A DNA stretch of 53,852 bases from a virus (IMGVR_UViG_3300009428_000011:1-53852); one strand, 5' to 3'; shown: positions 13,830 through 29,371, counted from the first letter of the stretch. Program-made: numbers and translations. Notes: a model not told the origin generated them from the sequence alone.

Positions 13830-14702
13830 ATGCAAGCATCACTACATTCAAGCGAGTTACTAACTAGCTTTATCCACTCTTACAATGAAGAACAGAAAGA
13901 AATTGAGCAACAAGAGCAAATCCACGCGATATACAAAGCTAACGTGCAAGATGAAATAGCTTTACTTAAATCTAAATTAGAAGCTGAAAAGCGTTTAACA
14001 ACTAAGTTGAAAGAAGATATTAATCAAAACAATATCGATCTTAACAAAGCAGCTAAAGCGGTGGAAAATGGTCTTGTCATTGCAAAAAAACAAACTGCGC
14101 TAAAAAAAGAAGTCGAATCGCTGGAAATTAAGAACGCCAGATTGCACGAACAACTTAAAACGGCACAAAAGAAAGTTGCCGAATTAAGCCAGCTCAACCC
14201 TAAAAAGCTAAAAGAGCAAAGCAAGCGCCAAAAAGAAGCAAACGAAAAAGCGCAAACACGCGCTAAAAAACTGGAGGTTGACAATAAGAAATATCGCAAT
14301 GAAAATCAAAAGCTTGAGATTGCTCTAGCTAAGGCTGTTAGCACTGCTGTCGAGCTAAGGAATGATCTAGATCGCAGTTGCGGCACTGGCCTTTACCACA
14401 ATGGCGAACACCATTTAACTATATGGCCACAAGCTATAAAAATAGAGCGTGAGGATGGCTCACACTTTGAAGGTCGCACACTTCTCTACTTACACCAAAG
14501 CGGTAGAGGTGGACTGATCGCGCAAGACTCAGATATGAACGCGCACTTATGTTCAGCACCAAAAGGCGGGTTAAGACCAAACAAAGCAACACTTGAGTTT
14601 GCTAGCAATTGGCTAACGCAAGTAAACACAGTGCAAAGCGGCAATATAACAGATGCAGATATGCTACCAGTTAATTTCAACTCTCAAGAAGGTGATTTAT
14701 GA
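13830..14702 (+). CDS. coiled-coil hypothetical protein
   Basis: Long heptad region followed by a globular C-terminus. ATG 13830 follows GAGGA (track start 13815). Confidence 0.75.
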   Translation: MQASLHSSELLTSFIHSYNEEQKEIEQQEQIHAIYKANVQDEIALLKSKLEAEKRLTTKLKEDINQNNIDLNKAAKAVENGLVIAKKQTALKKEVESLEIKNARLHEQLKTAQKKVAELSQLNPKKLKEQSKRQKEANEKAQTRAKKLEVDNKKYRNENQKLEIALAKAVSTAVELRNDLDRSCGTGLYHNGEHHLTIWPQAIKIEREDGSHFEGRTLLYLHQSGRGGLIAQDSDMNAHLCSAPKGGLRPNKATLEFASNWLTQVNTVQSGNITDADMLPVNFNSQEGDL

Positions 14703-14902
14703 GTTTACCAACAAGCCAGTACCTAGCAACAAAAGACGTAGCCGCGCTGTTCGGTGTTAAATCTAAAACTATTTTAGAATGGGAAAAAGACGGGAAGTTC
14801 CCGCCGGCAACAATCATTGGAAAGCCTAAGCGCTGGGACACTGAAATAGTTGATAAGCACCGCCAATCGCTTAGAGAACAGGCTACCCGCCTTTCAGCAT
14901 GA
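14699..14902 (+). CDS. xis: excisionase/AlpA-type recombination directionality factor
   Basis: YLATKDVAALFGVKSKTILEWEKDGKFPP...RW wHTH; last PL-operon gene, convergent on int. Confidence 0.8.
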   Translation: MSLPTSQYLATKDVAALFGVKSKTILEWEKDGKFPPATIIGKPKRWDTEIVDKHRQSLREQATRLSA

Positions 14903-16082
14903 TAACCCAACGGTTAACCCACTCAGTTAATCCTTCTAACATTGGCGATTTGTTATATATCGCCAATACCCCTTTCATCTTATGCCCTAGTAGCTTCTCA
15001 GTGAACTGCAAAGGGCATCCCGCATCTGTTAAGTGTGTTGATATAGTCCGCCTTAAATCGTGCATTCTGAACGGTGAAACGCCTTCAATAGACTCGTAAC
15101 AAGGTTTAGATATTTGACTCACGCTTGAGCCGCTAGCGGGATGATCACCATCGCGGTTAGGAAACATATAAACGAACGCCGGCGATTGCGCTTTTAAATA
15201 TTCTAGGTCTTTAATAAGATCATCCGGTATGGGCCTAATAATAGAGTGCAAAGCCCCCTTTGTATTTTCTCTTTGTGTTGTAAAAAGTTTATTGTCTAAA
15301 TCAAAGTCTGTTTTTTTCGCGCTGCATAGCTCGCTTATGCGACAACCAAACACCATTGCACAACGTAAAAGAACTTTATTTCTATCAGTTATATTTAGTA
15401 AATCTATGTTTGACCAAATCAACTGGCATTCTTTAAGTGATAAAAAGTGCTCACGCGAAGCATAATCGCTAGCGAAGTCGCTTGGTCTTAATGCTTCAAA
15501 TTGCGAGTTATTAATAAAGCCCTGACGAATGCAAAAACGAAATATCGATCTAATCTCAATAATCGCAGTAAAAGCAAAGCCCTTACCTCTACCCTTTTCG
15601 ATTGATACATCACTCATCGACTTAAAGAACGCTGTAAAATGCGTTTTATCCATTAGTGATACATATTGATTGCCCCAAGTGTCATTTATACATGATCTTA
15701 TTCTTGTGCTTATACCTTCAGGATTATCTCGCTTAGGCAGGCAATAGTTTTCAAACCAATAATCAAAGCAATTATAAATAGTTGGGTTTTCGATAAATTC
15801 AGCTTCAACCGATTTTATTGCCGCCATGTTTCTAGGATCTAAATTTTTATCTACTAACGACATTTGTGCTGCGCATTCTTCGCGTGCTTGTGCAAGTGTC
15901 ATTGCTGGGTAGGTGCCTAATTTATACCTAACTTGCTTACCGTTAATTCGATAGCGTATTTGAAATGAGATCTTTCCCCTTGGGGAGATCCTAAGCGATA
16001 GGTTATCGCCGTCCGTTATTTCAGGCTTACCGGTATACTCTTTACCGTTTAAGCTCTTTAGTTTAGCTGCTGTAATGTTCAT
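14883..16082 (-). CDS. int: tyrosine integrase with N-terminal arm-binding domain
   Basis: ITDGDNLSLRISPRGKISFQIRYR..LGTYPAMTLAQARE arm domain; catalytic GCRISE, HDLRRT, LGH and Y. Start at ATG 16082 after GGAG. Confidence 0.97.
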   Translation of the reverse strand: MNITAAKLKSLNGKEYTGKPEITDGDNLSLRISPRGKISFQIRYRINGKQVRYKLGTYPAMTLAQAREECAAQMSLVDKNLDPRNMAAIKSVEAEFIENPTIYNCFDYWFENYCLPKRDNPEGISTRIRSCINDTWGNQYVSLMDKTHFTAFFKSMSDVSIEKGRGKGFAFTAIIEIRSIFRFCIRQGFINNSQFEALRPSDFASDYASREHFLSLKECQLIWSNIDLLNITDRNKVLLRCAMVFGCRISELCSAKKTDFDLDNKLFTTQRENTKGALHSIIRPIPDDLIKDLEYLKAQSPAFVYMFPNRDGDHPASGSSVSQISKPCYESIEGVSPFRMHDLRRTISTHLTDAGCPLQFTEKLLGHKMKGVLAIYNKSPMLEGLTEWVNRWVIMLKGG

Positions 16083-16096
16083 TGAGGCTCCGACTC

Positions 16097-16412
16097 TGAG
16101 TACCAAATGTGACCAAAAAAAGGGTCAACTTTAAAATGGTACACAACTTAGGACACAAAAGTCACCAATAATAGCGGCTTACAAAGGTTGTTAGCGGTAG
16201 ATAGAGGACATTGAAAGCGGTGTAAGTTGTTGTTTTTTAGATAATAAAGGTCGTTATAGGAGGATAAAAATATATAGCGGAATATGACTAAAGGCAATGA
16301 ATCATTAAGTTTAGTATCTTGCCTGCGTCGGTGCCAAACTCATGTTTTGTAATGTTTTTTTCTTCTGTCATAACGTTGCCTTTTAAGCTTTTGGTACACA
16401 CTTTGGTACTCA
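16097..16412. other. attP: arm-type Int sites flanking a core near 16290-16315
   Basis: TGGTAC(A/T)CA-type repeats at 16097-16105 (inverted), 16108-16115 (inverted, degenerate), 16137-16145, 16149-16157 (degenerate), 16392-16400 and 16404-16412, in the non-coding gap next to int. Confidence 0.75.
16288..16371 (-). CDS. 27-codon HtpG (Hsp90) N-terminus-like ORF; replacement 5' end for the integration target gene
   Basis: MTEEKNITKHEFGTDAGKILNLMIHCL* with AAGG RBS. It aligns with the HtpG start (F...+..+L.LMIHSLYSNKEIFLRE) and diverges right after LMIH. Confidence 0.75.
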   Translation of the reverse strand: MTEEKNITKHEFGTDAGKILNLMIHCL

Positions 16413-16454
16413 TTCAAATTTTACATCGAATGCGGACCAACTAACATGAGTAGA

Positions 16455-16485
16455 ATATTGTGCTACTTGGTGGACAATTCAAGGG
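16455..16485 (-). promoter_or_regulatory. sigma32-like heat-shock promoter for the HtpG-like ORF
   Basis: CCCTTGAA(16485-16478)-15bp-CACAATAT(16462-16455) versus consensus CTTGAA-N13-15-CCCCATNT. The -10 box has two mismatches. Confidence 0.5.
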
Positions 16486-16593
16486 CAAGTTATAAATTTC
16501 TCGTAGACTTAACGACTCGCCTACTATAACTTAATTACGCGATATTAATACAGGTAGTTTTTATATTGCTGGTTGACGACTCGATACTCTGTT

Positions 16594-16619
16594 AAAAGCC
16601 CTCTTAATTGAGGGCTTTT
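16594..16619. terminator. bidirectional intrinsic terminator after ant
   Basis: AAAAGCCCTC-TTAATT-GAGGGCTTTT. Confidence 0.85.
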
Positions 16620-16624
16620 GGTTG

Positions 16625-17380
16625 TTATGCTGCGTGATCCTGATCTCGTTCACTCCAAAGCTTTTGAAGTTTGGCGAGCCCTTTGCCGGTAACAAGTGCT
16701 GTTACTGATTGCTTAAGCCCGTGATCTGGATGCTCCCAGCTACCAAGCTTAACATCAAGATAGCCTGCTTCTATTTTTGTTTGGTAAGGTTCGTTACGTC
16801 TTGAGATCCAACCTATTTGACGAAGAAACGCAAATAATCGCCGCTGACCTGTACCAATAATCTTCGCCGCTTGCGCTACACTTATTGCGTCAGGTGCTAC
16901 CTCAACTTGCTTAGCGAACGCTACGCGCGGGGCTTCCTCTTCAAGCTGATGCTCAAGCTTTAGTTTTTCTTGCTCAAGCCTAATGCGATCTTCTTCTGAT
17001 TGCATGGCCAGTTGCAAAATATCCATGCGCGATAAGTTTTCCGCTGGGGATTGGCGCTTGTTCAGTTCGTCACGCATTTCAAAGAATGCTTTGATCAGTG
17101 CTTTTTTGAATGCTTTAACCGTATCGTTGTTTCTAAAGTACGTTAATAGCAAGGCTGATTGCTGCTCGTTAAGAATTGCGTATTCAACCTTTGAGCCGCC
17201 GCCCTGCGGACGTTTCACCACATGGATTTCAAATCCAAGTGGGCCAAACTCTTCAAAATCAGCAATATTCTGGCGGATCACTTTTATTACCGACGCATGC
17301 GGGTTGCCCACCCCTTCGGCAATTGCCAGCGAGGTGGTGATCGGGCAATTTGTATCATTTAAGGTCACGATGCTGTTCAT
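16625..17380 (-). CDS. ant: antirepressor (Rha N-terminal + KilA-C/ANT C-terminal)
   Basis: TTSLAIAEGVGNPHASVIKVIR..LNEQQSALLLTY..FKKALIKAF (Rha); APRVAFA..ISVAQAAK..RLFAFLR..PYQ..TALVTGKG (ANT). Confidence 0.9.
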   Translation of the reverse strand: MNSIVTLNDTNCPITTSLAIAEGVGNPHASVIKVIRQNIADFEEFGPLGFEIHVVKRPQGGGSKVEYAILNEQQSALLLTYFRNNDTVKAFKKALIKAFFEMRDELNKRQSPAENLSRMDILQLAMQSEEDRIRLEQEKLKLEHQLEEEAPRVAFAKQVEVAPDAISVAQAAKIIGTGQRRLFAFLRQIGWISRRNEPYQTKIEAGYLDVKLGSWEHPDHGLKQSVTALVTGKGLAKLQKLWSERDQDHAA

Positions 17381-17649
17381 TGGATGATCCTCATTGGCAT
17401 TGATTCAAATTTAGCTTGCATATCGCCAAGGCGATCAGATACGAGCCACAATAAATTAGAAATCTGCTCTTTGGGAAACCCTTCTATATTGTCGTTACCC
17501 ACCATAAAATCTACGAGCGATTTAGTCTGTGTTAACAGGCGATCAAAGTCATCGTAACTGTCGTTAGTCATAATGTTTGCTGTTACGAGTAATTCACTTT
17601 TATTTACTCGTTGTGTGCTTTGCTCTTCATTTGGTATATTATTAGCCAT
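17377..17649 (-). CDS. hypothetical protein coupled to ant
   Basis: 90 aa; strong AGGAG RBS; ATGA overlap with ant. Confidence 0.75.
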   Translation of the reverse strand: MANNIPNEEQSTQRVNKSELLVTANIMTNDSYDDFDRLLTQTKSLVDFMVGNDNIEGFPKEQISNLLWLVSDRLGDMQAKFESMPMRIIQ

Positions 17650-17729: not shown

Positions 17730-17879
17730 TTAAGCTGCTTTAGTTTGCTCATTCATTTTTTCCTTTATCCACATTTCAATTTGCTTGTTCTGTGAGCGGC
17801 CATTTTCTTCGGCTTGCTCTCTTATAAACTCTCGCATTTCTGATGGTATTCTTAATCCAAATATTTTGTGCTTTCTCAT
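17730..17879 (-). CDS. arc: Arc-like ribbon-helix-helix repressor (49 aa, not in ORF track)
   Basis: MRKHKIFGLRIPSEMREFIREQAEENGRSQNKQIEMWIKEKMNEQTKAA. Confidence 0.85.
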   Translation of the reverse strand: MRKHKIFGLRIPSEMREFIREQAEENGRSQNKQIEMWIKEKMNEQTKAA

Positions 17880-17899
17880 TGCTATTAATCCTGTTATTA

Positions 17900-17964
17900 A
17901 TGATAGTAAAATGCAACCATTTGGCTACCATTGATAATGTAGTAGCATTTCACTACCATGTCAA
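17900..17964 (-). promoter_or_regulatory. Pant-like promoter with Arc/Mnt-type operators
   Basis: TTGACA(17964-17959)-TGGTAGTGAAATGCTAC-TACATT(17941-17936). 21-bp quasi-palindromes ATGATAG-N7-CAACCAT (17900) and GTAGTAG-N7-CTACCAT (17939). Confidence 0.75.
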
Positions 17965-17989
17965 TACCATCAATAAATATTGCCACCTT

Positions 17990-18754
17990 ATGCCAAAAAG
18001 ACCACCTCAAATAAATGTCAGAGTTTCTGAAGAATTAAAAGAGGCGCTGCATGATGCAGCTAATGTAAATGGACGATCAGTAAACTCTGAGATAGTTTCA
18101 AGATTAGAGAAGTCTTTTGGTGACGAAAGCATAGATGTTGATAGTGGCAGTAATGGCTTGGCAAAACAGCTGCAGGATTCTCTACTAAAACAGCAGAGGC
18201 TTATAGATGCGCATCGAACAATGACTGAGCAAATGCAGTTTATGGCTGATAAGTACAACTCATTAGTTCGCCATGTTTTACCGGCCATTTGCGAGTCTAA
18301 GGTTGTAAGACTTCAAAGAACGTTTACAACATACGGTGATAAAGATAGATTAATTGCTTTCTTTAAAGCTATACCCGACATCAGTCGTATTCTAGTTGCT
18401 GTTCGTGATGGGCATTCAAACTATAGTGCAATGACGTTCGTTATTTATAACGAGAGCCATATTTTTATCGCAGATGCGACACCCATGACGGTGGAAAGAT
18501 TGCCGCGTGAGGCTGAGGTTTTAGAATTGTTTGAAGAGCTAGATAGAGTTGGGCTACTTGACGTTACCGAATGTATTTTAAGTAGGGTTGAGCAAACGAA
18601 AGATTTGATTCCAGAAAAGGCGGTTAACACTCTAGAAAATAATGACTCTCGACCTATCAGGAGGAATATTTACGAATTTTTAAGCCTGTTTTTTAGCGAG
18701 CCAGAGCAGGTTAAGCCTGATTGGTTTGTTGACGAATGGAAAAAGTTGAATTAA
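17990..18754 (+). CDS. Mnt/Arc-family RHH repressor with a long C-terminal extension
   Basis: MPKRPPQINVRVSEELKEALHDAANVNGRSVNSEIVSRLEKSF; divergent from arc; ~200 extra residues. Confidence 0.8.
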   Translation: MPKRPPQINVRVSEELKEALHDAANVNGRSVNSEIVSRLEKSFGDESIDVDSGSNGLAKQLQDSLLKQQRLIDAHRTMTEQMQFMADKYNSLVRHVLPAICESKVVRLQRTFTTYGDKDRLIAFFKAIPDISRILVAVRDGHSNYSAMTFVIYNESHIFIADATPMTVERLPREAEVLELFEELDRVGLLDVTECILSRVEQTKDLIPEKAVNTLENNDSRPIRRNIYEFLSLFFSEPEQVKPDWFVDEWKKLN

Positions 18755-20167: not shown

Positions 20168-23100
20168 CTAATCATTTTTGATTATGCGGTTAAATCGACT
20201 TCTTACCTCCCTTGCTGATTCATTGTCCATTATTAGTTGCGCTCGTTTTACTGCGCTTTCAAATGAACGATCTGATAGGTTTACTGGCGGCACTTGTTCG
20301 CGCAGTAAAAAGCCAACATTGCGCTTACTTATTCCTGCTAGTAGTAGTATTTGCATCACTTGCCTGCGGCTTGCGCCCCCTGTTTGAGCGGCTTTAATTA
20401 AGCGCGACATTTGCTTAAATGCTTGCTCTTGCTTTGTTTTAGCTCGCTCTTTAGCTGCGCTTATTTCATCATCAGATACTTTATTTGGATCTCTTAACAC
20501 GCCGCTTAGCTCTTTTCGGGCTTCGGCAATGGCGCTGTTAAAGTCAAACGTGCGGTAGTACAGGCCAACTTTAGGATCAAAGGTAGAGCTTCGGAAACCA
20601 GCAAGTGCCAGCATTTCATCCGACAGGCTATAAGGCTTGCCTGTTGAGCGCTTAACATCGGTTGCGGCCATGCCAATACGCCACGCATTATTTACTGCGC
20701 CAGGCGCTAAGCCTAATGCTAAGTGACCAGCAATATCAGCGCTTTTACGTATGGCTGTATCGTTTTCTTTATATACCTGACCGCCGCTTTGCTTTTTATT
20801 GCTGACCACTTCAAGTATTTTGCCTGTACTAATGTCAGTACCTAAAAATGGCGACACCATATCACTGAGCGATGAGGCGATAGCCTCGTTAACAGGCTGG
20901 TCACGCATCATGGCCTCTATTGGTCGTTTCCAGTAGGCGTAAGGGTCTAAGAACGACATATCAAAGTAACGTAAATTATTGTCGCTATCTCGACCTGCAT
21001 AGATAAAGGTTGAGTTTTTTTGCCATGGCGGGGCTAAGTCTCTTAGCGCTTCCTCTTCATCATCGGTCACGCCAAACATGGCGGCGCTTAATGCAGATAG
21101 AGCAAACATGCCGCCACTGGCCAAGCTCATGCCTACGATTCGTTTTGCGCCCATTTCGCGTATTTTGGGGTTGTCTGACTTTATTTCGCTGGCTGCAAGC
21201 TTCATCATGTTGCCTGTCGTTCTAATAACTTCAGCAGGGAACGATACAAACGTGCCGGCCAACGGGAACCGTGACAGCCACGCCCCCGCTTTACCTACTC
21301 GGCTATATGTTGGATAGGTATTTTGTATCCGCTCAGCGGCTAATGCTTCTGCTTCGCCTTCTTTCATGCCTGTGCGGACGAGTGCGGCTTTTTCATTTTC
21401 AAAGCCTACTATCTTCCAAAAGTCATCGCCAAAGCGATAGAAACCTGTCGCTTTAGCGGTTAGCCATCGTAGGTTTTCAAAAGCGGCTCCACTCTTACCT
21501 TCAAGCATTTGGTTTATCTTTCCATCAGTCATAACCTTGACTATATCGCCTGCGTTAGCTGAGTCATAAAGCACGCCCAACTTAATTAAGCGCTTTATGT
21601 AATCAGATTCGCCGTCAGTTACTTTTTCTTTAACTTGTGCGTTAAATGCTGCAACGGCTTGCTTCATGTATTTTTGATTAAAGTGTCCGTTGGCAACGGT
21701 GAAAAAATACGCCGACATTACATTACGCATGGCGGTTGTGGGTGATAGTACGGTTTTGCCGAATTTAATGAAGCCGTTTATTTGTATAGCCTTGTCTAGC
21801 CAGCCCTCACCACGTTCACCGCCCATCGCATCTTCAAACGCTTCTTTTATTTCTGGCGTTGTCCACATGCCATTCAGTGGTGCATATACTTCCGATGCTT
21901 CACCTGCAAGCTGCACTGTGGCATTAGGTGGCCGACTGTCCTTTTCAAAAATGAAATTGTTAATGCCCATATCGCGTATTGTGCTTAGGAGTTTATCATT
22001 AGCGATCATAGCTGACATTTTTGAGACGGATTTAGCGTAGTTAATGCGTGGGTCTGCGTATTCACCTAGTAATGCTCTGATTTCAGGTGATATGTCTTTG
22101 CGTGGTATTAGTGTAGATAAGTCTTTAGAGCCTAGCTTACTTTCGGCAATAAACGATCCCAAGCTGTCGTAAGCGGTGCTGGTTTTAACCATTTCGTTCA
22201 TAGTTACTTGGGCTTTTTGCTGTGCTTCTTTTGCTGTTGCGCCGTCTTTTTCATATTGCTGCATTAAGTATGCACGTGCATCATCAATTACCTTAGTCGG
22301 TATTTTTTCAAACCATTTAGGATCGTCAAATGCTTTATAGCTGCGGTTTAAATATTTGCCCATGTTACCTAGCATTTTTTCAAGGCGAGCCGACTCTTTA
22401 GGGTCAATATCGCCATCCTCTGCAACTCGCTGCTGAAGCTTGTTATTGACACTTGCAACGTAATCTTTTGTCAGTCCATCGATATGTTCGCGCATTAGTA
22501 TCAGCGTGTCTCGCTCACTTTGATTAAGCGCCTTGCCATCATTTTCACCTATTAAAAATTGGTGGTACTTAGTCCATTGATCATCGGCTAATCTGTCAGG
22601 ATTTATTTTGGCGGCTTTCATTGCTGAATTTAGCTTGCCTACCAGCATAGATACATCAAACTCATGTACAGCTACATCGCGATCACGGCCTCTCTTAGCT
22701 TGCTGGACGGTTTCAGGTAAGTTGCCACCTGGCATAAACCAGCGTGAAAGTTGGCGTTTTATTTTATCGCCTGCGGTTTTGTCGGTTTCGCGTAGTTGTG
22801 CGTTTAGCGCCTCCCATTCTGGCACGCTTGATTTTTCAAAGCGGTCGCGGTTAAACGCCTTTTTTACTGATTCCGCTATTTTGTTTGGTGCTGGGCTAGT
22901 GTCGTTATTGGCTGTGCGGCTGAATTTTTTATCTGACTGACTATAAGCTATTTCGGCTTCACTGCCAGCCATTGACTCACGCTGCGCTTTGAATCCTTTA
23001 ACTATACTCTCAAGCATTTCACGCATTGCTGTTAGCTCGGTATCTTCGCTATAAGCCAGGCCTACTTTATCAAGCTGTGCACGTATAAAGCGTTTAAGTG

Positions 23101-26100
23101 CTTGCCACCAATATTTAAGCTCGCCTTTTGTGGGCTCGTTTTCTACAAAGCGTGCAAATATTTCTTCAGCTTTAACGTCCTCGCTTGCATCCCAATAATC
23201 GTTGTTCGCATCTTTCCAGTATTTCTCAAACGCTTTACGGCCCTTGGTCTTTTTAATACGATCAATAAATTCTTGCTTAGCTTCTTTACCAATAACAGTA
23301 TCAAGGCCACCATGAGCAATAGTTTCATGCGCTAAAGTTTGTTTAAGATCCTCTATACTATCCATGTTTTCAGCAATGATATAAACAGTATTGGACATTT
23401 CACTATAAGCGCCCTTAACTGTTGCACCTTCTAAACTCATGCGCCATAGTTTTTCTGCTGTGGCGGTATCTTCAAGTATATTAACAGTGATGCCGTTGGC
23501 GCCTTTTAAGTCTTTAACAAACTGATCAGCAATACGCTGCGCTTGCTCAGTGCTGATTGATTTGCTGCTAGCTGGCTTTTTAGATTTTGACTTTGAAAAC
23601 TTAACATCGCTAGCTATTTGTACTTCTGGCGCATCGCTTGGCTTCTCAATAACGATTGCTTTAGTATTTACGTTTGTTGGGTTTAGCGAGCTTTTAAATG
23701 CGCCTTCTGGTAGCGTTTGCTGCTCTGCGTCTAAAGAATCTAGCCATGTGTTAAACTCTTTGTTTGCTTTGTTGCTTCGCTCACCTGCCATGCTAGACGT
23801 TATAGCCACAAGCTTGCCGCCTGGGTTAAGCATTTTATATGCGTGTTCAACATGCTTAATATCTTGGTCATTGCTAAATGGCGGGTTCATTACTATACGG
23901 TCGTAGCCATTTTCTGGCGCAAACTCTAAGAAGTCATTACCAACTAGGTTATGCCCCTTTTCTTGTAGTATTTCTCTAAGCTGCCCGCCCATTTCAACCA
24001 CGTCTACGGTCGCGCCTTGCTCTCTTGCTGCGTCGGCTAAAAGTCCGTTGCCTGCTGATGGTTCAAGCACACGCATGCCTGGCTCAATATCTGCCATTTC
24101 AGCAATATCGCTAGCAAGACTTTCAGGTGTTGGGAAAAAATCGTTAAATGCGTTTCTATTTCCTAACATTGTTCGCTGCAAGTCTCTTTCCATTTGACTT
24201 AGCTTGCTTGGTGCTTTACCTGTAGAGCTATTTTCGCTTAAATTCATGTACTCAATTAATGCAGTTCTAAGTGTCGGCACATTAGTAATACCCATTCTAT
24301 CTAGGCGCTTATAGTTTGCAGCGGCATCGCGTAGCATGTCGTATTGGCTAAGATTGTTTTCTATGTAATCAATATATTTAGGGATCAGGGTATCATCAAC
24401 ATCAATATAGTCTTGATCGCTCTTGCCTTTGACTAGCGCGTTCATCTTGCGACCCAGCAACACAAAGCCTTTAGTATCTTCCATATCGCGAGCAATTTCT
24501 TTTAGCCTAAATACCTTTGTGGTTTTTAAAGGCATTCTTGCGTGCTTTGCTCTTTCGGCCTTTGATACTTCGGCTTTAAATGTTCTTCTGCTGTTGCTGT
24601 CCTTATTCACTTGGCTTTCTGGCGCGCTATTAACTAGGCTTCTTGCTAGTGAGTCTAATAGCTCAACCTGCACTTTTTGAGTCGCATTTTTTAATACTAT
24701 CGTGTCCGAACCTGGTAGCTCTCGCATGATCTTAGATAGCTCAATTTCCTTTTCAGCTTTTGCGGTTGCTGATTCTGCCTCACCAAGACGTTTAATAGTG
24801 TTTGTTTTTCTATCTGCGTTTAGGGCTTCACTTGCGCGCTGCTCCGCTTTCTCAGCCATAGCTTGCAGTTTGTCCGCATTTTTCTGACTTCTCGCCTCCT
24901 GCCTTTCAGCCTGTTTCTCTGTGGTGTCTACAGTTTCACCGTTAACCCACCCACTAAATAGCTCGGCATCTTCTACAGATTTAAAGTAAAAATTACTCCG
25001 GTAGTAACCGCCACCCATTGAACGCGCAAAGGCTGCTGCTTCTTTAAATGCGTCTTTTCCAAGTCGGCTAATTACATTTACATTAAATATCTTTTCGCCT
25101 GTTTTGCCATGCACGCCCTCAGTAGGCTCGCCCAACTCAACATCGCCACCTGTTTTAAGACCTTCTTTTTCGGTTGGCTTTTCATTTTTGCTGGCCATGG
25201 TTTCACCTGCAATTAGCTTGTCGTATTCTGCTTGTTGCTCGGTAGTTAGGCTGTCTTGTCCCTGCGCTTTGATCTTCGCTTTGAAGTCATCTAGTGTTTG
25301 AGGGTTTTTAAGTTTATCTAGGTACTGATCAAATCTTTCTTTTTGCGCGTCTATTTTTGCCTTTTGCTCTTGTGAATATTCCGCGACCTGCTGATCAGTC
25401 AAAGAGTCAACATGCTTTTTAGCCTCGCTTATTTTATCCTCTAGCTTGTAAGAGTTCGTGGTAATAAACTCGCTCTGTTCGCCTATAAATCTAAAGCGCG
25501 TGAACATATCGCGGTATGCGCTATCTACCAGCTCGTCTTTTTTGGTGTCACTCCAAACATGACCGCTCACCAACCTAGTCAGTTGCTTTTTATTTAGCTT
25601 TCTAAGCTCGGCTTTTACAGAGTCTTTATTATCTGCCAGGTAATCAAGTACGCGCTTAACTTCTTGAACGCTACCAAGCTCGCCCTTACTCATTGCGTCT
25701 GTCATGCTGTCGTAAGCGTCCAAACCCGACTCGATAGGCGTTTGCTTGACTGGTGCTTGACTGGTGCTTGATTGCTCACCTCCCGTCACGGTTTCAATTT
25801 CTTTCCATAACTTACTGCGTGATCCAAGCACGCTTTTAAGCGTAGTCCCGCTATTTTTAAGTGCGCTTTCTATTTTATCTATTGCTTGTGCTGCCTCATC
25901 CCCATGAGTGCTTAAAATCCTATCCCATGCTTTTTTAGCTCTTGGCATAAACGCTGATTTGTTTAAGCCTGGGGTTTGCATTGCACCTAGCTCGTTAGCA
26001 AAATCAATGATCGATTTTTGCTTATCGCTTTCTTTTTTCCTTTGTGTTGCCGCTGCTCTTTGATCTTCATTCATTACCGCCTCAACTCTAGCGGCTATGT

Positions 26101-29100
26101 TTTTCCTTTTTGAGTCTAAGCGTTCAAGCTCTTCACTAGACTCTCTTGCTTGGCGCTCTGCTTTGCTGTTGTACTTATCAAGATCAAGGTTATCTCTACC
26201 GGTTATGGCCCATGACGGATTGTTAGCGGCCCGATTAGATTCGCGATAAATGTATGACTTACTATCTTCTAAATAACTCTCTATAACCTCTTTGGCTTTG
26301 CTCTTTCGCTCTGGCGTATCTAGCAGGCCCTTGTCGTTTAAATGTGTAAGTATAGACTCTGCACTAATCCTTAACTCTTCGTTAAAGTCTCGGCCTCTTC
26401 CTCTGTGCGTAGCCATGTTGTATTGGCGCTCTGTATCGCTATCAATTGCAGGTACGCTAACATCAACGCCAAACTTAGATGTATTAGCGTTTTGAGCGGT
26501 TGAACTATCTGGAATTTCCGGATTGTTGGATTGAGCTGTAGGCTCTTGGTCAAATAGAGTCGGCTCGCTATCTCCAAACATATCAGGGCCATTTTCTTGC
26601 TCTACGCTTTCTGGCTCTACTGCTGTTTCTTCTACTTGAAACGTATCATCAATGCCAAATTCTTTACGCAGTTCGCTGTACGCTTGTCGGTTAATACTTT
26701 CTGGTGTATCACTATTAAACTCTTGATACGTTTCAAACGATGATTCAGCTAGGGCCTTATCAATGGCTGGTTCATAACCTTCTTCAATTTTAGCCATGGC
26801 AACATCAAAGCCAGGCGAGCCTTTTTTAAGGCCCTGCTCTTTGGCTTGGCTCTGTAACCATTTGCGTTTAGTGGTTTTTAGTATTGGTGGTAGCTCGGCT
26901 GATTGTTCAGGATTAACAGCGTCTTGTTCACTATTTTCAAGTTTTTGCTCTGGAATAACACTGTTTTGTTCATTTTTAACTTCAATTTGTTCATTCGTAA
27001 CAGTCTGGCTATCCTGCGTTTCAGTGCTGGGCATTTCTTTAGCCAATGGCACTAGTTGTTCAATAGGCGCATTTAAGCGGATCACTTTTACTGGCTCGCC
27101 TTTTTCGCGGGCGGCTAGCCACTGGTGATGACCGTCGAGTACATAGTTATCATTCGATACTAATATAGAACGGTTGCCGCCTTCAAACTCCATTGCCTTT
27201 TTAACCTTGGCTGGTGAAAACTCTTGCTGCGTTGGCTTTAATGACTGTGCTGGCACTTCATCTTTTTCACTGTCGATGTCACGCGCTTTCATAAAATTAA
27301 CCATAGCGCCACGGCTCTCAGCTTTGACTTGTGGCATTTCTGAACGTGGTATATTTTTGGTGCCGCTCTCCTTGGTAAAAGATTGCCATTCATCATCAAT
27401 CATTTCACCTGCGATATTCTTACCTTCTTCGCTACTCACTTGTTCCGCGTCTACGTTTAACGATAACGCTTCACCTTCTTGTTGGGCTGGTTGCGCTTGA
27501 TCGCCCTGTTCATTTTGCGCAACCGTATCAGTTTCAGGGCTTTGCTCCGCTGCTGCCTGTTCTGAATCTTGCTTAGTGCCATCATCGCCTTTAATCGTCC
27601 AGCCAAAACCATTATCAAAACTTACTGCTTTTGTTTTGTGGCCGGCTCTGCGTGCTGCTCGCGCTTCTTTACTTAATAGCGCATCGCGTTTGGTTTTAAA
27701 TGCTTCACCATTTTTAGCCACGTTAACGCCGCTTTCGTTACCAGCAAAGATAATATCTTTTTGTGGTAATAAGTTTTGCGAGTCTTTACCGGCTTGCTTA
27801 ACCTGCTCTGCTGCGCGCTGCTGTGGTCGGCCATCTTCACCAAAAATAATATCTTTTTGTGCAATGCCTTTAGGCTGTGACTCAAGATCCGCTTGTGCTT
27901 GCTCGCGCATTTCACGGTTTTTAGTTTGCTCTGTTGTTGGCAGCTTGCCTTGCTCTGGTATTACTTGGCCGTCTATTGGTGCGTTTTCTATGCCTTGTGC
28001 GTTTTTAGCGTCTGGACCTAATAGCTCGCCTTCGTGCTGATACTTTATAGGACTAAAGCGATCCTCTGGCGTTGGTGACTTGTCAAACGCTGCCGCTTTT
28101 ACTCGCTCGTCTACAGTAGGTGCGTTGTTGCCTGCTTCTAAGTCTCTTAGCGACTGTTGCGCTGGGCTTGTAAGCATATCACCATACTGGCCGGCTGCTT
28201 TTGCTGTCTGGTCAAAGCCTGCTTGTCTTGCGGCTGTTGGCGCATCGTAATCAATATCATCATTTTTAAATACAGGCGTTTCGGTATCTTCTGGTATTGT
28301 TTGCGCTTGCTCTGTTTCTTGTGATCCCGGCTGATTTTGTTGGGCTGCGGCTGTAAACAAAGGATCATCAATGCCGAATTTTTCTTTCATTGTACGGGCA
28401 ACAATTGCTGACGCTTCAACCTCTGTAAAACCTTGCTTAATGGCTGAGTCGTATTGCTGCTTTTTAACTGTTTCAATGGCTTCTTCTGGTGCTGCGCCTG
28501 CTTCTACAAGCTGATCAACACCTTCCTTAACGGCTTCTGCTGATTTTTGCTGATAACCCATAGCCTTTTGCGCCGTTTCTGAGCCGGTACGCATAACGCC
28601 ACCAACCAAGAGGCCACCAACAAAGGCTTCGTCTAGCCCTTCAAATTCATCAACGCTTTTGCCAGCACCCCATTGCGCTAGTGCTTCTTGCCCTGTCTCA
28701 GTTAAACCCTCTGCGCCTGCGCCTTTCAGTATGCGCTTAGCAAAGGTTGGATCGCGTACCGCTTCGACCAGCTCACCACGGCCCATGCGTTTAGCCGTTT
28801 CGACTACGCCATCTTTTAAAATGTCTTTACCAAGTTGGCCCATGCTAACTTTGATACCTAAACGCTCAAGTAACATTTGCCCGGCACCGGACGCAACCGC
28901 TTTAACTTCGTCTTTTTCGCCTTCTGGTTGTTTCTCGTAAGCTTCGTTAGCTAAGCCGCCCGCCATACCAAACGCACCAACACCGGTAGCCGCACCCGCC
29001 ATGTAGGGCAGTGAGCCCGCAACTAGTTCGCCTGTGTAGCTACCTAAATCGCTGAGGCTTTCAATGTCCTTATATGATTTTACTGTCGGCTCGTACTGCT

Positions 29101-29371
29101 CTTGCTCTTTAACGTTACGATCAATGCCTTCTTGAGCCCACTGCGATAACGCTCCGCCTTGACCTATTGCACGACCTATAGCACCCGTTTGTTCTTCCTC
29201 TGGCACTCCAACGTCAGTAAAGCCCTTAACGGCTCGGTACCCAATCTCTTGTAACTTATCAACACCTGCCCCTAGTGCTGCAGACATACCTCCTTCAGCT
29301 TCTGGCTTTGCAAAGGGATCGATAAATTCAATTTCTTTATTAGTAAATGGGTCTAATATTTTATTGGCCAT
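20168..29371 (-). CDS. giant polyvalent internal virion/ejection protein (ParB-like, N6-adenine MTase, zincin-like and C-terminal helical domains)
   Basis: 3067 aa at the end of the late operon. LKPTQ..ILVSNDNYVLDGHHQW (ParB/Srx); FFPTP..VLEPSAGNG..YDRIVMNPPF (MTase); KGAY..VYII..TLAHETIAHGG..EEIFA (metallopeptidase-like). Confidence 0.85.
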   Translation of the reverse strand: MANKILDPFTNKEIEFIDPFAKPEAEGGMSAALGAGVDKLQEIGYRAVKGFTDVGVPEEEQTGAIGRAIGQGGALSQWAQEGIDRNVKEQEQYEPTVKSYKDIESLSDLGSYTGELVAGSLPYMAGAATGVGAFGMAGGLANEAYEKQPEGEKDEVKAVASGAGQMLLERLGIKVSMGQLGKDILKDGVVETAKRMGRGELVEAVRDPTFAKRILKGAGAEGLTETGQEALAQWGAGKSVDEFEGLDEAFVGGLLVGGVMRTGSETAQKAMGYQQKSAEAVKEGVDQLVEAGAAPEEAIETVKKQQYDSAIKQGFTEVEASAIVARTMKEKFGIDDPLFTAAAQQNQPGSQETEQAQTIPEDTETPVFKNDDIDYDAPTAARQAGFDQTAKAAGQYGDMLTSPAQQSLRDLEAGNNAPTVDERVKAAAFDKSPTPEDRFSPIKYQHEGELLGPDAKNAQGIENAPIDGQVIPEQGKLPTTEQTKNREMREQAQADLESQPKGIAQKDIIFGEDGRPQQRAAEQVKQAGKDSQNLLPQKDIIFAGNESGVNVAKNGEAFKTKRDALLSKEARAARRAGHKTKAVSFDNGFGWTIKGDDGTKQDSEQAAAEQSPETDTVAQNEQGDQAQPAQQEGEALSLNVDAEQVSSEEGKNIAGEMIDDEWQSFTKESGTKNIPRSEMPQVKAESRGAMVNFMKARDIDSEKDEVPAQSLKPTQQEFSPAKVKKAMEFEGGNRSILVSNDNYVLDGHHQWLAAREKGEPVKVIRLNAPIEQLVPLAKEMPSTETQDSQTVTNEQIEVKNEQNSVIPEQKLENSEQDAVNPEQSAELPPILKTTKRKWLQSQAKEQGLKKGSPGFDVAMAKIEEGYEPAIDKALAESSFETYQEFNSDTPESINRQAYSELRKEFGIDDTFQVEETAVEPESVEQENGPDMFGDSEPTLFDQEPTAQSNNPEIPDSSTAQNANTSKFGVDVSVPAIDSDTERQYNMATHRGRGRDFNEELRISAESILTHLNDKGLLDTPERKSKAKEVIESYLEDSKSYIYRESNRAANNPSWAITGRDNLDLDKYNSKAERQARESSEELERLDSKRKNIAARVEAVMNEDQRAAATQRKKESDKQKSIIDFANELGAMQTPGLNKSAFMPRAKKAWDRILSTHGDEAAQAIDKIESALKNSGTTLKSVLGSRSKLWKEIETVTGGEQSSTSQAPVKQTPIESGLDAYDSMTDAMSKGELGSVQEVKRVLDYLADNKDSVKAELRKLNKKQLTRLVSGHVWSDTKKDELVDSAYRDMFTRFRFIGEQSEFITTNSYKLEDKISEAKKHVDSLTDQQVAEYSQEQKAKIDAQKERFDQYLDKLKNPQTLDDFKAKIKAQGQDSLTTEQQAEYDKLIAGETMASKNEKPTEKEGLKTGGDVELGEPTEGVHGKTGEKIFNVNVISRLGKDAFKEAAAFARSMGGGYYRSNFYFKSVEDAELFSGWVNGETVDTTEKQAERQEARSQKNADKLQAMAEKAEQRASEALNADRKTNTIKRLGEAESATAKAEKEIELSKIMRELPGSDTIVLKNATQKVQVELLDSLARSLVNSAPESQVNKDSNSRRTFKAEVSKAERAKHARMPLKTTKVFRLKEIARDMEDTKGFVLLGRKMNALVKGKSDQDYIDVDDTLIPKYIDYIENNLSQYDMLRDAAANYKRLDRMGITNVPTLRTALIEYMNLSENSSTGKAPSKLSQMERDLQRTMLGNRNAFNDFFPTPESLASDIAEMADIEPGMRVLEPSAGNGLLADAAREQGATVDVVEMGGQLREILQEKGHNLVGNDFLEFAPENGYDRIVMNPPFSNDQDIKHVEHAYKMLNPGGKLVAITSSMAGERSNKANKEFNTWLDSLDAEQQTLPEGAFKSSLNPTNVNTKAIVIEKPSDAPEVQIASDVKFSKSKSKKPASSKSISTEQAQRIADQFVKDLKGANGITVNILEDTATAEKLWRMSLEGATVKGAYSEMSNTVYIIAENMDSIEDLKQTLAHETIAHGGLDTVIGKEAKQEFIDRIKKTKGRKAFEKYWKDANNDYWDASEDVKAEEIFARFVENEPTKGELKYWWQALKRFIRAQLDKVGLAYSEDTELTAMREMLESIVKGFKAQRESMAGSEAEIAYSQSDKKFSRTANNDTSPAPNKIAESVKKAFNRDRFEKSSVPEWEALNAQLRETDKTAGDKIKRQLSRWFMPGGNLPETVQQAKRGRDRDVAVHEFDVSMLVGKLNSAMKAAKINPDRLADDQWTKYHQFLIGENDGKALNQSERDTLILMREHIDGLTKDYVASVNNKLQQRVAEDGDIDPKESARLEKMLGNMGKYLNRSYKAFDDPKWFEKIPTKVIDDARAYLMQQYEKDGATAKEAQQKAQVTMNEMVKTSTAYDSLGSFIAESKLGSKDLSTLIPRKDISPEIRALLGEYADPRINYAKSVSKMSAMIANDKLLSTIRDMGINNFIFEKDSRPPNATVQLAGEASEVYAPLNGMWTTPEIKEAFEDAMGGERGEGWLDKAIQINGFIKFGKTVLSPTTAMRNVMSAYFFTVANGHFNQKYMKQAVAAFNAQVKEKVTDGESDYIKRLIKLGVLYDSANAGDIVKVMTDGKINQMLEGKSGAAFENLRWLTAKATGFYRFGDDFWKIVGFENEKAALVRTGMKEGEAEALAAERIQNTYPTYSRVGKAGAWLSRFPLAGTFVSFPAEVIRTTGNMMKLAASEIKSDNPKIREMGAKRIVGMSLASGGMFALSALSAAMFGVTDDEEEALRDLAPPWQKNSTFIYAGRDSDNNLRYFDMSFLDPYAYWKRPIEAMMRDQPVNEAIASSLSDMVSPFLGTDISTGKILEVVSNKKQSGGQVYKENDTAIRKSADIAGHLALGLAPGAVNNAWRIGMAATDVKRSTGKPYSLSDEMLALAGFRSSTFDPKVGLYYRTFDFNSAIAEARKELSGVLRDPNKVSDDEISAAKERAKTKQEQAFKQMSRLIKAAQTGGASRRQVMQILLLAGISKRNVGFLLREQVPPVNLSDRSFESAVKRAQLIMDNESAREVRSRFNRIIKND

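Follow-up and report, generated by a model that had tools for sequence, protein, structure and literature searches.

The window analysed here is a complete linear virus record from IMG/VR (IMGVR_UViG_3300009428_000011:1-53852; 53,852 bp), whose internal phage attachment site (attP) very probably carries a replacement 5′ end for htpG, the gene for the bacterial Hsp90, HtpG. On one side of this site lies the gene int (14883..16082, minus strand), encoding a tyrosine integrase (Int) of 399 aa with a likely ATG start at 16082; the longest open reading frame (ORF) reaches a TTG at 16106. Int combines an N-terminal domain predicted to bind arm sites (Pfam Arm-DNA-bind_3, PF13356; 64.5 bits against a cut-off of 27, E 1e-17) with a C-terminal catalytic domain (Phage_integrase, PF00589; 63.3 bits against 27.1, E 3e-17), and its translation contains the active-site motifs GCRISE (R), HDLRRT (H-x-x-R), LGH (H) and AIYNK (Y). 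Between int and the next phage gene, which encodes a Rha/antirepressor protein, lies a non-coding gap of 518 bp that houses a mini-ORF.

The mini-ORF (16371..16288, minus strand) reads MTEEKNITKHEFGTDAGKILNLMIHCL* and represents an htpG 5′ coding segment of 25 codons (MTEEKNITKHEFGTDAGKILNLMIH) followed by Cys-Leu-stop. Its frame extends upstream to an ATG at 16413, but relatives keep the start at 16371; a Pfam search with the 41-aa ORF gave no match. The start codon is preceded by a ribosome-binding site (RBS) on the same strand, AAAAGG (16379..16384), with AAGG 8 nt before the ATG. Further upstream, the replacement promoter (16485..16454, minus strand) consists of CCCTTGAA (16485-16478), a 15-nt spacer and CACAATATT (16462-16454). 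A repeat search showed that arm-type repeats with the consensus TTTGGTAC(A/T)C flank the attP core on both sides. The P′ arm holds two direct copies, GAGTACCAAA GT GTGTACCAAA on the minus strand (16390-16399 and 16402-16411), which fall into the 5′ untranslated region (UTR) of the rebuilt htpG, and the P arm on the int side (16097..16157) holds TGAGTACCAAA, inverted (16097-16107), and TGGTACACAACTTAGGACACA (16137-16157). The same repeat pairs are found upstream of int at the left prophage junction (attL) of four Pseudoalteromonas lysogens (G049, G138, G073 and G075). Thus, the minus-strand ORF with an RBS and a promoter element between Int arm repeats is present exactly as the first-pass annotation had described it, and it is more than a chance frame, since the same frame continues into full-length htpG in lysogens.

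Comparison of attP with the empty bacterial site (attB) of two species (G012 and G087) and with attL and the right junction (attR) identified the core as 18 bp (16296..16313) that are identical in the empty htpG attB, read TAAACTTAATGATTCATT on the minus strand and encode L-N-L-M-I-H; from the sequence of the window alone, the core had been placed at ~16295-16312 in the (N)LMIH codons. In G073, the junctions differ on either side of ATGATTCA (CTG..CATTCA at attL, CTA..CACTCT at attR), so that strand exchange would be confined to these 8 bases, 16298-16305. The crossover falls in codons 22-24 of an htpG of 637/638 codons, and the 18-bp site as a whole spans codons 19-24. Directly past the core, the phage-only codons Cys-Leu-stop (16288..16295, with base 16296; minus strand) terminate the orphaned host htpG fragment at attL; the tails of other variants read CI*, SI* or SIQ*. 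Contigs from RNA libraries break at 16289 and 16313, and a 55-kb TARA scaffold begins exactly at 16296.

Lysogens were searched with Int as query against one genome per species, the Pseudoalteromonas set comprising 140 species genomes. A copy with 99% identity was found in Pseudoalteromonas sp. APC 3691 (G001; locus L002) and one with 78% on a short contig (L003) binned to a Psychromonas metagenome-assembled genome; a third match, at 22% identity, was irrelevant. At L002, the sequence is homologous to the window from within the phage across int as far as 16316, and the host genes beyond the attachment site are apt, dnaX, ybaB, recR, an MFS/acyltransferase gene and an rluA-like gene. The attL at this locus carries the host promoter, CCCTTGAA-N14-CCCCATAT, followed by the ORF MTAAQKETLGFQTEVKQLLNLMIHCL*, which by comparison is the start of the host HtpG ended by the phage Cys-Leu-stop. 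In line with this, the empty attB of the sister species G012 and G087 is identical to attL up to ...ATGATTCATT, after which htpG continues. The sole Hsp90 gene of APC 3691 is located on a separate contig, where it is preceded by phage genes and by an arm 76% identical to window positions 16286-16623. At this attR, MTNKKDITKHEFGTDAGKILNLMIH is in frame with SLYSNKEIFLREL..., resulting in an HtpG of 638 residues followed by adk. The chimeric protein matches the NCBIfam HtpG equivalog NF003555 with 850.9 bits (cut-off 371) over profile positions 2-614 of 614 and contains the Pfam domains HSP90 (440 bits), HATPase_c and HATPase_c_3; within the window itself a search with PF00183 gave no match, as expected for a piece of 25 codons.

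Four further lysogens have the same arrangement. Both junctions lie on one contig in G049 and G138 (Int 78% identical, insertions of 55 and 57 kb) and are likewise present in G073 and G075 (67% and 69%, insertions of ~60 and ~41 kb), which brings the lysogens with both junctions to 5/140 species genomes. In all five, the Int homologue (67–99% identity) is found directly downstream of the host-type 5′ fragment at attL. Relatives located through their integrase thus sit in the 5′ end of htpG, as had been proposed. The opposite outcome, close integrases at tRNA genes or other loci, was not encountered for any homologue of at least 67% identity, and only homologues of 40–42% occur elsewhere. Full-length chimeric ORFs of 638 aa are present in G001 and in a further genome, G125, and the frames of G049, G138, G073 and G075 are open to the end of the locus. 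A degenerate pattern for the phage-type N-terminus matched 3/140 genomes (G001, G049, G138) and a pattern for the promoter before the LMIH codons 7/140, with no match in reversed-pattern controls.

In a tree of the HtpG bodies, the lysogens fall in four places, and the body of G001 is identical to non-lysogen bodies; this tree contains 51 of the 140 genomes in a non-random choice (the best host-type matches, all pattern matches and five hand-picked large genomes), the other 89 being left out. The large structural protein of the window is absent from the elements in G075 and G073, indicating that the int-att module rides on different backbones. A family-level sample of 401 genomes returned only G001 itself and G165, with Ints of 40–42% at other loci, and is uninformative on other genera. 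In G165 (L067, L068), these Ints are encoded at two non-htpG loci, with no tRNA gene found and with TTTGTGTACCAAA-type repeats upstream. Because the same repeats stand beside such distant Ints away from htpG, they would represent an integrase arm site and not a feature of htpG, and the arm-site motif appears to be common to a wider integrase family with different targets. Neither junction is present in the IMG/VR proviruses G002, G004 and G005, whose ends were cut at gene boundaries, and these records are hence uninformative. Chimeric HtpGs sit within ordinary clusters of 90% identity, so that a homology search with residues 1–40 shows types of N-terminus and cannot count lysogens.

Free and integrated forms are also represented in environmental collections. 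The attP form is seen in the window, L003, G006, G003 and L115, each time with a stop 2–3 codons past the core, and IMG/VR holds the same arm both as attP (L115) and as attR (L116). Fourteen metagenome contigs carry the phage-type N-terminus: nine are attR, four attP, and one is cut at the core. Contig L127 joins the exact 25 residues of the window to htpG, with flanks 95–98% identical to the window. Three metatranscriptome assemblies from seawater contain contigs in which htpG is linked to window positions 16289-16485 with two differing letters, and one RNA-library contig spans attL. Together, the metagenome and RNA-library contigs indicate that the junctions exist in nature. A full-length chimeric HtpG with the first ~25 residues from the phage, behind the phage promoter, had been predicted, and this arrangement is found at attR in the lysogens, in L127 and in the RNA-library contigs. 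One DNA run, X3, contained no junction-bridging contig. Many marine DNA runs contain ~0.46–0.54 of the sampled words of 15000-17400, roughly the fraction made up by the int side as far as the core; this fits either integrated relatives or relatives with another right arm and is not taken as a measure of habitat or prevalence. The IMG/VR contig G003 (L023, L024; 55,979 bp) combines an attP form at one end with an attL bearing the host-type N-terminus at the opposite end, as a sample containing both free and integrated copies might produce.

Our analysis thus makes it very probable that this is the attP of a temperate Pseudoalteromonas phage whose Int uses an 18-bp site in htpG and whose own module rebuilds a full-length chimeric HtpG. 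Sequence comparison establishes the core, the two junctions, the uninterrupted chimeric frame and the conservation of promoter, arm sites and peptide. Int would recombine attP with the site in codons 19-24 (L-N-L-M-I-H) of the host gene. Integration at the 5′ end of htpG would require a replacement module on the phage arm that precedes the core: a heat-shock-like promoter, a 5′ UTR containing a pair of Int arm-type sites, an RBS and the initial 25 HtpG codons. At attL, the phage stop two codons past the core would cut off the host's sigma32-type promoter together with its codons 1-24, leaving the stranded promoter and 5′ fragment facing int. At attR, the phage module would be continuous with the host frame from codon 25, so that a full-length HtpG of 638 aa results, presumably driven by the phage promoter. 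The purpose of the module would be to keep htpG working, not to alter it.

Several points weigh against this reading. The prophage of G001 is a mosaic, with an int side 96–99% identical to the window and an attR arm of only 76%; its attR is therefore not that of the window phage, whose attR form rests on L127 and the contigs from RNA runs. Moreover, the two junctions of G001 are on separate contigs. RNA libraries may include DNA, and the depths of their contigs (165/75/27 for attR contigs versus 15/8-10/3-6 for int contigs), in which htpG from non-lysogens is pooled, were not used as evidence; these contigs therefore do not demonstrate that the phage promoter initiates transcription. The metagenome, IMG/VR and run collections share part of their origin, so that their counts are not independent. 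Finally, the −10 element of the phage promoter, CACAAT, agrees with the sigma32 hexamer CCCCAT at four of six positions.

Alignment of 11 arms (five attP-type, five attR, and G088/G125), which are 75–95% identical, showed that CTTGAA, CACAATATT, TACCAA..TG.GTACCA, A.GG of the RBS and the ATG are invariant, and that the promoter spacer, the UTR and the bases flanking the arm repeats vary freely. Over codons 2-20 of nine distinct ORFs, pN/pS is 0–0.63 in 35 of 36 pairs, and the last pair differs by a single non-synonymous change, with none that is synonymous. Judged from these alignments, this is the pattern of a translated, selected segment with a selected promoter. If instead the mini-ORF and promoter were the neutral scar of an old imprecise excision, the rebuilt gene would be unexpressed or unneeded and the lysogens effectively htpG mutants. 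The off-consensus −10 and the absence of the site from a sigma70 scan are what such a scar could leave, but hexamers, RBS and peptide stay conserved between arms of only 75–85% identity, synonymous changes dominate, and the frame is intact in 5/5 lysogens and 9/9 metagenome attR contigs. In addition, G125 and G088 have kept the cassette as their sole htpG 5′ end without a prophage, and contigs bridging attR occur in three RNA libraries, so that we regard a scar as very improbable.

The point at which this conservation stops also bears on whether the 27-aa peptide might be a phage product made from the unintegrated genome, for instance a mimic of the HtpG N-terminal strand directed against the host Hsp90. 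The promoter, RBS and ORF are complete in the free phage and would yield MTEEKNITKHEFGTDAGKILNLMIHCL, and attP forms always have a stop within 2–3 codons of the core. However, the tail past the core is unconserved (CL*, CI*, SI*, SIQ*), and conservation reaches precisely to the core, which is what selection on the fused form would produce. The early stop has an equally good explanation in that the orphaned host fragment at attL has to be terminated. We therefore consider a free peptide the least probable of the explanations, and even if it were made, it would be compatible with a module that rebuilds htpG in the lysogen.

A study covering Shewanella gives the sigma32 consensus as CTTGAAA-13/15 bp-CCCCAT and lists htpG as the top-scoring gene there (PMC3168786). 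The −35 element of the phage promoter, CCCTTGAAT, is a perfect match to CTTGAAA, and its 15-bp spacer is within the range of 13–15; the host htpG promoter, with the −10 element CCCCATAT, matches the full consensus. The replacement promoter was not listed by the sigma70 scan. In other, non-lysogenic Pseudoalteromonas clades, CTTGAA-N14-CACAATAT is the resident htpG promoter. On balance, and with a −10 that matches at only four of six positions, we lean slightly towards a phage promoter that is still under heat-shock (sigma32) control.

The same promoter differences could mean that the module rewires htpG: CACAATATT would place the gene under phage or sigma70 control, Int bound to the arm sites in the UTR would tune it, and the stranded host sigma32 promoter would drive int under heat. 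The phage −10 differs from the host CCCCATAT in every variant, a pair of Int arm sites separates the −10 from the RBS, and at attL the host promoter faces int from ~270 nt upstream, with no terminator-like site called between them; one RNA-library contig bridges attL. On the other hand, the −35 CCCTTGAA, which sigma70 would not need, is perfectly kept, and CTTGAA-N14-CACAATAT is resident in non-lysogenic clades and hence probably serves normal htpG control there. Moreover, no RNA-library contig joins attL to the int ORF, and cover breaks at 16197-16221; uncovered parts of these contigs, such as this one, were not used as evidence. Rewiring as the role of the module therefore appears rather unlikely to us, and we prefer a module that maintains htpG.

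The phage-type N-terminus is one residue longer than that of the host. Aligned back from the core, NLMIH and the preceding L are shared, and among the other 18 positions only T and F are the same. By comparison with Hsp90 structures, the replaced part of HtpG presumably corresponds to the N-terminal swapped strand and most of helix 1. An AlphaFold2 model of the chimeric HtpG, built from an alignment of 18 rows, has a mean pLDDT of 71, with residues 1–29 below 50 and a helix predicted at 12–29, and adds little. The first-pass annotation had expected lysogeny to change the N-terminal strap; the replacement of the N-terminal segment stands, and the label is imprecise, as bacterial Hsp90 is described as having no significant strap (PMC4381864). 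According to the same paper, the N-terminal residues and helix 1 of other Hsp90s make contact with the lid and influence closure, and the segment joins the strand swap there (PMC4381864). Resident HtpGs in other Pseudoalteromonas lineages start with ...NHSFGTDAKQILNLMIH, ...NHQFGTDVGKLLNLMIH or ...NHSFSANTKQLLQLMIH (FGTD-type), so that the chimera is probably a working natural variant and not an exotic one. The most economical reading of these similarities would be that the module was captured from a lineage with an FGTD-type start and keeps htpG working in hosts with a ...GFQTEVKQLL-type start.

Some genomes carry parts of this arrangement without an intact element. In G131 (L066, G131:C1:1165000-1184500; 868-1863, 16720-16870), a frameshifted host-type copy of the htpG 5′ end is followed by an integrase pseudogene, 57–62% identical to Int residues 141-278, and by a 15.8-kb island with IS transposase, sugar-metabolism and TonB-receptor genes. 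The htpG after the island is intact, and its promoter is the canonical CCTTGAA-N14-CCCCATAT. This arrangement resembles the decayed attL of an old htpG-targeting element that has lost its mobility. In G125 (L084, G125:C9:79500-93500, 2370-2563) and G088 (L083), htpG has a single 5′ end, a stretch of ~190 bp with promoter, arm repeats and N-terminus of the phage type; in these two genomes no Int (E up to 1e-40), no host-type 5′ copy (E up to 1e-5) and no adjacent prophage was found. Similarity to the attR arm of the lysogen G075 ends ~20 nt above the −35. The 11 kb upstream of htpG in G125 are occupied by non-phage genes, and neither genome retains synteny with recR on that side. Their HtpG bodies cluster with those of G075 and of the host-type G084, in which recR is directly upstream. 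The C-terminal 900 aa of the large phage protein are unmatched in G125 and G088, but equally so in the lysogens G075 and G073, so that this control failed and the result is uninformative.

A search for TACCAA 60–100 nt before the LMIH codons matched 21/140 genomes and none in the controls. Seven of these genomes have been described above, and the others fall into two related clades with large genomes. One is a clade of 11 species with GTGTACCAAATAAGTTAGGGTGTACCAAATG, in which CTTGAA-N14-CACAATAT lies directly after recR and the second repeat abuts the start codon; at its loci (L070, L071, L085, L089-L094, L097, L100, L101, L105), a resident htpG has GTGTACCAAA-type repeats in the 5′ UTR without a prophage. 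Three luteoviolacea-type species (L069, L088, L099) likewise combine a resident htpG with CTTGAA-N14-CACAATAT and GTGTACCAAA-type repeats in the absence of a prophage, and together with the 11-species clade they form one supported group in the HtpG-body tree (95/83). This distribution suggests that the resident 5′ regions of these 14/140 species may descend from a phage arm. More tentatively, and as something that we think possible rather than probable, repeated lysogeny and prophage loss may have rewritten the promoter, N-terminal strand and helix 1 of Hsp90 lineage-wide and for good, the orphaned host heat-shock promoter being coupled to int in current lysogens. The cassette would then contribute to host gene evolution in addition to patching the interrupted gene.

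Classical phages integrate at the 3′ ends of tRNA or protein genes, where attP copies the segment distal to the crossover and the gene stays whole. In contrast, the htpG phage duplicates a 5′ end and leaves the host promoter pointing into the prophage; because the duplicated segment is the 5′ end, the phage must bring a promoter, an RBS and a start codon. A related solution is known from the conjugative element SXT, which reportedly supplies a new prfC 5′ end and promoter, a finding attributed to Hochhut and Waldor in 1999. The int/xis-dependent integration of SXT/R391 in prfC also takes place in the 5′ end of a protein gene that remains functional (PMC4344509); unlike the htpG phage, SXT/R391 are conjugative elements with another target and another integrase. 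Elements with dusA-specific integrases replace the 5′ end of a conserved gene and have putative −35/−10 sequences before and after insertion (PMC4482086). The htpG phage resembles them in its tyrosine integrase, its single site at the 5′ end of a conserved housekeeping gene and its element-supplied 5′ end, and according to the same study the new N-terminal residues there supply an equivalent structural element (PMC4482086). It differs in its target, htpG (Hsp90), in the hosts seen, Pseudoalteromonas, in the heat-shock-type −35 kept in the replacement promoter and in the Int arm sites inside the new 5′ UTR. No description of htpG as an attachment site was found in the literature searched, supplements and subscription journals lying outside that search. 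Integration at a 5′ end with replacement is thus known from dusA and prfC, and what is new is the htpG target together with signs that the cassette outlives the prophage in some species.

The bacterial Hsp90 gene htpG, of which the phage would swap both the control region and the segment for the N-terminus, joins dusA and prfC among the few protein genes known to receive a replacement 5′ end from an integrating element. A lysogen and its cured strain would form a natural pair, isogenic by design, for probing the role of the first 25 residues and the promoter of Hsp90 as well as any gain for the phage. Judging from the remnants in G131, G125 and G088, and perhaps from entire clades, a cassette of this kind may turn into the permanent start of the host gene, a route of promoter and N-terminus turnover that is rarely documented. 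For annotation, an orphaned htpG fragment of 26 codons upstream of int marks a prophage boundary.

No named close relative of the phage emerged: a tblastn search with Int against deposited phages gave a best identity of 33.5%, and megablast of the att region against the same phages gave a single, chance-like match of 47 nt. An ORF of 67 aa (14699..14902, plus strand) overlaps the 3′ end of int on the opposite strand; it matches Pfam HTH_17 with 27.2 bits against a cut-off of 27, with weak matches to MerR and AlpA, and its domain and position make it a candidate excisionase (recombination directionality factor). The first phage gene past the att module is the Rha/antirepressor (KilAC) gene (16625..17380, minus strand; Pfam ANT, E 1e-23; Phage_pRha, E 8.5e-15). 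Just after this gene, the repeat search revealed a 10-bp inverted repeat, AAAAGCCCTC-N6-GAGGGCTTTT (16594..16619, unstranded), in a stretch kept at 89–91% identity in G004, G006 and L122. This repeat may act as a terminator that insulates the htpG module from upstream phage transcription; a terminator scan of 16000-16700 called no terminator, including at this repeat. Further into the phage, window positions 17730-17879 (minus strand) encode a small Arc-like DNA-binding protein (Pfam Arc, E 2e-9) near divergent ORFs, among them 17843-18754 (plus strand), and the region 17730-18754 may be the lysogeny switch. An ORF of 3,067 aa occupies 20168-29371 (minus strand); its C-terminal half is kept in the G001 prophage as an ORF of 1,721 aa (L008 230-5395), and it is absent from the elements in G073 and G075. 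At L002, positions 108-675 hold a host ORF of tandem GKCGEGKCGGDAKDAKAK repeats upstream of the apt-dnaX cluster, which is unrelated to the attachment site.

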